The notes beneath the pieces are model-generated. The model was not told the DNA's origin. It was given only the letters and a program-made list of their open reading frames with translations, and searched no databases. The position numbers and the translations under genes are program-made. From assembly GCF_003334815.1 (NCBI RefSeq), contig NZ_QOWO01000015.1: a DNA stretch of 64,000 nt, one strand, 5' to 3'. Each line of letters starts with the position of its first letter. Positions within the stretch are counted from its first letter, which is position 1. This document shows, piece after piece, positions 16,944 to 17,515 of this stretch. The stretch is from Escherichia coli. Lineage in GTDB: Bacteria > Pseudomonadota > Gammaproteobacteria > Enterobacterales > Enterobacteriaceae.

Positions 16944-17304
16944 CGTAACTTACTCATTATTCTTACATTGACGACTAAGCTGCGGGCAAAGTAACGCCTT
17001 TCCGGGTGTGAACCGATGGCCTCGTGTCTAGTCGCGTCGCCAACCTCACGGTTATCGTCAGCTCAAAGAGGCGCAGAGTGTCGGTTGCCCGTTTTTCATG
17101 CGGAAAAACAGCGCAATTATCAAAGAAACAGACTGGGTATTACTCTCCAGAAATATTTCCATCTACCGGTAAGGACTGCAACCCGCAGCCCGCTAACTGC
17201 CTGAAAGATCAATACGTCTTACGCCATTGCTGCGTGGATGATCGGTCGGGCAAAATGGGTTATTCCGTAAAATTTCTTGTTTTAACAAGGATGGACACGG
17301 AAAC
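16944..17304 (-). promoter_or_regulatory. rne long 5' UTR (autoregulatory leader) and promoter region
   Basis: 572-bp non-coding gap upstream of rne; E. coli rne is known to carry a leader of about 360 nt that mediates feedback control; boundaries approximate. Confidence 0.55.
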
Positions 17305-17398
17305 GGCCTCATTATTCCACTGCAAGCCTTGTTATAGCAAGATGACTTTTACCATTTATCACCCGCTTACTCACAGTTTTTTCACTTCTTGCTGGTGA
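17078..17398 (+). CDS. yceQ: Annotated-but-doubtful small ORF YceQ (106 aa from GTG), antisense to the rne leader
   Basis: ORF-track frame 17024..17398; the 106-aa version from GTG 17078 matches the length I recall for yceQ; Cys/Arg-rich, poor coding appearance. Confidence 0.3.
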
Positions 17399-17515
17399 TT
17401 GGTTTAATAACCATCAATAAAGTGATCACGCAGTGAAGTAATAAGGTGCAAAAGTAAATATAAGCATAGAAAAATGAGTGGCGCGAATCCTGTTGGCTAA
17501 TTAGAATCGCCAACC

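Follow-up and report, generated by a model that had tools for sequence, protein, structure and literature searches.

The rne and rluC genes of E. coli diverge from an unusually long intergenic interval, which raises the question of what that interval is for and whether yceQ, a small open reading frame (ORF) annotated inside it, encodes a protein. The interval was studied in a window of 64,000 nt, the whole stretch of DNA that was analysed. It spans 16944-17515 (572 bp), and none of the window's other gaps between protein genes, 62 in all, is as long, the next being 399 and 333 bp and the median 51.5 bp. It is also the longest of the seven divergent gaps. An earlier reading made from the letters alone had called the gap unusually long for so compact a window, and these ranks bear it out. 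The ORFs concerned are as follows.

13758-16943, minus strand: rne, encoding RNase E (1061 aa), the gene under leader control (ORF list; MG1655 b1084).
17516-18475, plus strand: rluC, the divergent neighbour bounding the gap (ORF list; MG1655 annotation).
17078-17398, plus strand: the yceQ (b1085) ORF, 106 codons from a GTG start to a TGA end, judged a chance ORF (ORF list).

The answer reached here, with very high confidence, is that the gap is the control region of rne and that plus-strand yceQ is a by-product of it, a chance ORF that is neither translated nor under selection at the protein level. Both autoregulation through the rne leader and the spurious status of yceQ were already known from the literature.

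The gap is base-for-base identical to that of MG1655. The yceQ ORF is exactly b1085 of NC_000913.3 in coordinates and sequence (1,144,502-1,144,822, plus strand), where the curated record reads 'DUF2655 domain-containing protein YceQ'. This confirms the 106-aa, GTG-initiated ORF at 17078-17398, antisense to rne, that the sequence-only reading had described. Over its full length the window differs from MG1655 1,127,425-1,191,424 by 13 scattered substitutions, mostly transitions (window positions 4001, 9150, 19113, 20321, 28755, 38082, 42413, 47279, 51230, 53026, 56075, 60449 and 62557), and by one extra base; none of the 13 falls in the rne-rluC gap. Given these 13 single-base differences, the source is a K-12-like strain and not the reference itself. 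The extra base, at 18863-18865 (CAGTAATAG vs. CAGTATAG in MG1655), lies inside yceF (18587-19172, minus strand), which encodes a Maf-family 7-methyl-GTP pyrophosphatase, and splits this gene into ORFs 18587-18913 and 18843-19211. As it is shared by none of 5426 complete E. coli genomes (best match 120/121), it is either a private frameshift or a sequencing error in the source.

The strand opposite yceQ carries a curated RNA element. Rfam RF00040 (rne5) is matched over its full length with a score of 260.1 bits (E = 5.7e-82), well above its gathering threshold of 180. The match stops 24 nt short of the rne ATG, on the same strand as the gene, and has a P1-like promoter directly upstream. The position of P1 puts the transcription start at ~17304 and the length of the leader at 361 nt. 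A 361-nt rne leader that mediates feedback in cis has been published (PMC10989929). Its parts are listed below.

16944-17304, minus strand: untranslated 5' leader of rne, beginning at the P1 start and ending just before the ATG, 361 nt (start of the Rfam match, position of the P1 -10, PMC10989929).
16968-17304, minus strand: match to Rfam RF00040 rne5, the RNase E 5' UTR element (model positions 1-333 of 333).
17263-17302, minus strand: hp1, the 5'-terminal hairpin, leader nt 3-42 (Rfam consensus structure projected; also in the MFE fold).
17197-17253, minus strand: hp2, a conserved stem-loop with an internal loop, nt 52-108 (Rfam structure projected, 55-species alignment).
17214-17230, minus strand: hp2 core GCAAUGGCGUAAGACGU, invariant in the 55-species alignment.
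16977-17191, minus strand: hp3 domain, a long-range closing helix with a multi-branched interior, nt 114-328 (Rfam structure projected).

RF00040 and the window agree in locus, strand, length and hp1/hp2/hp3 architecture, and no difference between them was found in the window, which holds the E. coli K-12 type example. The ribosome-binding region formed by the last 24 nt of the leader (16944-16967) shows 98.6% identity across 48 Enterobacteriaceae. Autoregulation is also found in other enzymes of RNA decay, where the rnc leader is cleaved by RNase III and the pnp leader is processed by RNase III and PNPase. As with rne, the enzyme senses a structure in the leader of its own mRNA and destabilises the message. 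However, the enzymes and structures are different, there is no sequence relationship, and the rne leader is much longer and uses hp2 binding instead of a simple cleavage site. The reference for feedback through the rne leader is reportedly the work of Jain and Belasco from 1995, while Diwa et al. are said to have established hp2 as the RNase E sensor in 2000, and Schuck et al. are said to have found in 2009 that RNase E binds the stem-loop directly.

Comparison between species supports the structure of this leader. When the Rfam structure was applied to 55 Enterobacterales species, 88.8% of cells were paired, against 31.7-43.8% in slid controls in which the 3' partners had been moved by 1-3 columns. 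Pairs changed on both sides numbered 47 out of 84 (23-30 in the slid controls), the covariation score was 0.224 (0.060-0.096 in the slid controls), and not one of 500 column shuffles matched any of the observed structure measures. Compensatory changes occur in 10 of the 11 pairs of hp1 (helices 1-2). The helices of hp2 (3-6) show 88-100% pairing; their lower stems carry compensatory changes, and columns G77-T96 are invariant. In hp3 (helices 7-14), pairing reaches 98.2% in the closing helix and 92-100% in helices 11, 13 and 14, where compensatory changes also occur.

Folded by minimum free energy (MFE), the E. coli leader takes on the same architecture as the Rfam structure, but the energy of -103 kcal/mol is no lower than that of shuffles (z = -0.66). 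Thermodynamic stability was therefore dropped as uninformative, and the case for structure rests on covariation and the Rfam model. The sequence-only reading had seen a structured, autoregulatory rne leader in the gap and had named absence of conserved structure as something that would weaken this idea. The full-length rne5 match, P1 at its expected place and the covariation in 55 species uphold it, and the structure is conserved, with 88.8% pairing and 47 compensated pairs.

These observations also bear on a simpler explanation, that the gap is long only through housing several promoters of two divergent genes and contains no functional structured RNA. Several promoters have been reported in the region (PMC8361080), and the unexceptional folding energy of the leader (z = -0.66) would be compatible with this explanation. 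It is nevertheless considered extremely improbable. It leaves unexplained the full-length match to a curated covariance model, the strong covariation and the invariant hp2 core across a bacterial order, the higher column identity of the transcribed part (85%) compared with the distal spacer (68%), and the published cis-acting feedback through the leader (PMC10989929). The preferred reading thus remains that of a control region with a structured leader.

The distribution of the hp2 core was followed by an exact search with the 17-mer GCAATGGCGTAAGACGT, taking one genome per species, which returned at least 120 stretches. Among the matches listed, 116 of 120 adjoin rne and/or rluC in Enterobacterales, ranging from Escherichia to Photorhabdus, Xenorhabdus, Edwardsiella and insect symbionts, and the rne-rluC spacer in these loci is mostly 552-600 bp. 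Four loci away from rne (L014, L048, L046, L119) were considered as second copies of the hp2 sensor and rejected. Approximately 35 chance matches are expected in 298 Gb, and the flanks of the four resemble the leader only at chance level (22-33/120), so these matches are attributed to chance. The two among them from Yersinia sit inside a permease-like coding sequence.

The leader has also acquired insertions in some genera. Citrobacter, Pseudocitrobacter, Kluyvera and relatives carry an insertion of 89-128 nt inside the rne leader (L034, L055, L069, L066, L023, L100), in each case at one shared point after the equivalent of window 17162, in or beside a junction within the hp3 domain. Four of the six (121-128 nt) are imperfectly palindromic and contain an ERIC-like core, CACCCCAG...CTTAC...GTAAGC...CTGGGG, which is missing from the two shorter insertions, both in Kluyvera. 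Most of the six have TATAC...GTATA-like ends. One Kluyvera (L100) has a second copy in hp1, after the equivalent of 17270. The autoregulatory rne leader tolerates a mobile repeat inside it.

Upstream of the leader, the gap contains promoters and protein-binding DNA.

17311-17340, minus strand: rne promoter P1, with -35 TTGCTA (17340-17335) separated by 18 nt from a TG-extended -10 AATAAT whose last base is 17311 (consensus scan).
17355-17376, unstranded: double DnaA box TTTATCACCCgcTTACTCACAG, upstream of P1 in the 3' part of the yceQ ORF.
17399-17515, unstranded: distal spacer, where conservation within the gap is lowest, at 68% column identity (conservation profile).

P1 is the only sigma-70-like site that the consensus scan found in 16850-17650, and its hexamer blocks are 94-97% conserved in the profile of 48 Enterobacteriaceae. 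Published work has located the rne promoter inside yceQ (Price et al. 2016; Goodall et al. 2018). Counted from the P1 start, the double DnaA box is 51-72 bp upstream, and the block that contains it shows 83-93% conservation among Enterobacteriaceae. A DnaA ChIP-seq peak with the double-box sequence has been reported at MG1655 1,144,772, equivalent to window 17348 (PMC11317965). The box suggests that replication status is linked to RNase E transcription, and it is another non-coding function beneath the yceQ ORF.

A 555-bp region upstream of rne with promoters P1-P4 has been described (PMC8361080). The distal promoters P2, P3 and P4 were not found by the consensus scan, which gave only P1. The distal spacer presumably holds these distal rne promoters along with the rluC promoter and the rluC 5' UTR. 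Within this otherwise variable segment, the block at 17454-17483 (GTAAATATAAGCATAGAAAAATGAGTGGCG) stands out with 83-97% column identity. It sits 33-62 bp upstream of the rluC ATG and received no assignment from the consensus scan. It probably represents a promoter, either that of rluC or a distal one of rne.

Natural E. coli genomes carry IS1 at three distinct sites upstream of rne P1, each with a 9-bp target duplication.

17341-17349, unstranded: IS1 target duplication (L125).
17442-17450, unstranded: IS1 target duplication (L002).
17457-17465, unstranded: IS1 target duplication (L126).

A junction probe on the 17450 site matched 207 of 5426 genomes over at least 80% of its length. Besides FORC 064, the top listed matching genomes align with a gap of 15 bases, which is what an insertion at 17457-17465 should produce. 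IS1 at these sites parts P1 from the distal spacer, and the sites at 17442-17465 are 51-74 bp from the rluC start codon.

With the minus strand accounted for, the remaining question is whether yceQ is anything more than its complement. The ORF lies within the gap as the sequence-only reading had stated, but not wholly within the leader: 17078-17304 is antisense to the rne 5' UTR, while its last third, 17305-17398, is antisense to P1 and the DNA upstream. The same reading had described the product as rich in Cys and Arg, of which the first part stands and the second does not. Cys makes up 7.5% of the translation, against 0.7% in the 60 real proteins of the window and 3.8% at their maximum, whereas Arg at 3.8% is below the window average of 5.5%.

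The suspicion that the composition of yceQ looks non-coding was well founded. On a codon log-odds score trained on the genes of the window, yceQ scores -0.199, lower than every one of the 60 real genes (median 0.37, minimum -0.022). Among the 117 unannotated ORFs with 90 codons or more (median -0.085) it falls in the middle of the distribution. This is typical of a spurious ORF, and settles the codon-adaptation check that had been proposed. The GC content at the first codon position is 0.39, compared with 0.60 in real genes. The second proposed check, conservation at synonymous sites, gave the same outcome, as substitutions are not concentrated at third positions. Column entropy by codon position across 48 Enterobacteriaceae is 0.45/0.36/0.51, without three-base periodicity, while rluC and rne, over their first 321 nt in these genomes, have values of 0.20/0.10/1.05 and 0.06/0.02/0.73, respectively.

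Outside Escherichia the frame does not persist. In-frame stops interrupt it in all 44 of the 44 Enterobacteriaceae from other genera, most of which also have 1-nt indels, and it is disrupted even in the closest genus, Citrobacter. Homologues of yceQ form only 30 clusters among 5.8 billion protein clusters. All are enterobacterial, with 61-156 residues and 30-98% query coverage, and most are partial; they are sporadic ORF calls over the same conserved DNA. There is no match in Pfam-A even at E <= 10, nor in NCBIfam at E <= 1. DUF2655 was considered as evidence and set aside, since it survives only as a record name and, being absent from matches in the current Pfam library, can be used neither for nor against a protein. 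PGAP annotates nothing over the identical DNA in 40 of 40 evenly sampled complete RefSeq E. coli genomes, including the re-annotated K-12 MG1655. Missing periodicity, stops and frameshifts outside Escherichia and the PGAP result together support the earlier suggestion of an annotation artefact.

The strongest case for a product would be that yceQ is real but very young, a de novo proto-gene restricted to Escherichia that arose on the rne leader and is translated weakly or under specific conditions. Both E. coli and E. albertii have the complete ORF, its DNA shows 99% identity or more in 5397 of 5426 E. coli genomes, and an SD-like AAGAGG stands 6 nt before the GTG. When the 572 bp are shuffled with dinucleotides preserved, only 2.65% of the shuffles contain an open stretch as long as that of yceQ, 128 codons from stop to stop, or longer; 10.7% contain one of 107 codons or more. 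However, the high conservation of this DNA is due to the rne leader on the other strand, and a stretch of this size, although mildly unusual for one region, is unremarkable genome-wide. The changes seen within Escherichia are mostly non-synonymous, with synonymous to non-synonymous counts of 1:3 in E. albertii and 3:6 and 3:5 in two divergent E. coli lineages, both of which have lost the stop codon of yceQ. In the natural isolate Z22-2, an IS1 with the target duplication 17341-17349, inserted one base upstream of the P1 -35, truncates yceQ and leaves P1 and the leader intact. Spurious-type codon usage also argues against a proto-gene, as does the lack of any plus-strand promoter-like site in the scan, although the same scan also misses the rluC promoter.

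Published experiments point in the same direction. YceQ drew no ribosome-profiling reads in three conditions and was judged not to be a protein gene, and its ORF is disrupted in some strains (Price et al. 2016). Ribosome profiling had been the main check suggested for this ORF, and its result was thus already in print. Transposon insertions inside yceQ are tolerated, but only in the orientation able to drive rne (Price et al. 2016), and TraDIS gave the same outcome (Goodall et al. 2018). Taken with the sequence data, a young proto-gene is considered very improbable, and yceQ as a chance ORF remains the preferred reading.

The openness of the frame can be traced to the leader itself. In the yceQ phase the hp2 and hp3 stems are without stops, whereas the other two phases have conserved stops close to hp2. 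The SD-like AAGAGG is the complement of a conserved CCUCUU strand in an hp3 helix. It is the combination of a stop-free antisense frame with this SD-like motif 6 nt before a GTG that leads gene finders to call yceQ. Long open stretches in the same phase recur in several genera because the hp2 and hp3 stems are stop-free in that phase there as well. ORFs of at least 100 codons around hp2 are found in Citrobacter (107 aa), Kosakonia (137) and Edwardsiella hoshinae (195), with ends that differ owing to frameshifts. These recurring ORFs fit stop-poor conserved stems, yet the coding signal they carry is not zero. Open frames of 142-197 codons in the yceQ phase span much of the spacer in Edwardsiella hoshinae (L041), Kosakonia cowanii (L060) and two further loci (L006, L019), while close relatives of all four have stops in that frame. 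Such frames in distant genera may mislead gene callers there too.

The plus strand might instead act as RNA, with a non-coding antisense transcript over yceQ pairing with the rne leader and modulating rne in the manner of an excludon. From 58 E. coli RNA-seq samples, ExcludonFinder counts rne-yceQ among the 16 divergent excludons that occur in 50% or more of them. In the text consulted, no plus-strand transcription of yceQ is shown, and the call appears to arise because the long rne 5' UTR overlaps an annotated neighbour. No plus-strand promoter-like site was found upstream of 17078, which is a weak test. CRISPRi directed at yceQ has strand-specific effects that are consistent with blockage of rne and not of yceQ (Rousset et al. 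2018), and the tolerated transposons are those reading towards rne (Price et al. 2016; Goodall et al. 2018). An antisense RNA is accordingly considered very improbable, and the preferred reading is still that the function lies with rne on the minus strand.

In the mechanism proposed for this locus, transcription from P1 starts at ~17304 on the minus strand and yields a 361-nt leader folding into hp1, hp2 and a multi-branched hp3. According to the literature, when RNase E activity exceeds demand the enzyme would recognise hp2 and speed the decay of its own mRNA, and this hp2-triggered decay would hold RNase E synthesis steady. The DNA upstream of P1 carries the DnaA double box and, presumably, the distal rne promoters and the rluC promoter. 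On the opposite strand, the conserved G+C-rich stems of the leader are stop-free in one antisense frame in Escherichia and so create the yceQ ORF.

The 'essential' status of yceQ in Keio and PEC has been ascribed to the rne promoter and leader (Goodall et al. 2018; Rousset et al. 2018), and it follows from the present layout as deletion of yceQ removes both. False essentiality through an essential neighbour is shared with rnc, upstream of era, and psrO, upstream of pnp. In these cases too, deletion or blockage removes expression of the neighbour and insertions are tolerated in only one orientation. They differ in that both rnc, a gene, and psrO, a small RNA, are genuine, while yceQ apparently has no product of its own. 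Its label, 'DUF2655 protein YceQ', implies a protein family, but Pfam-A and NCBIfam give no match, PGAP makes no call, and Price et al. (2016) concluded that it is not a protein.

It is very doubtful that the intact frame in Escherichia, with its SD-like motif, marks a de novo gene in the making, or an antisense transcript, whose expression in certain conditions would act back on the leader through base pairing. For yceQ as an expressed proto-gene or antisense regulator in general, only a slight residual chance is left. The finding raises no new biological question about the rne leader or yceQ, and its practical value is one of annotation hygiene. The reference E. coli genome continues to list yceQ as a protein, Keio and PEC class it as 'essential', and the label spreads from there into essential-gene lists and excludon catalogues. 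Assigning the function to the rne leader and promoters on the other strand keeps deletion, CRISPRi and transposon data from being misread. The same applies to genome engineering, where 'synonymous' edits to yceQ can damage an essential regulatory RNA.
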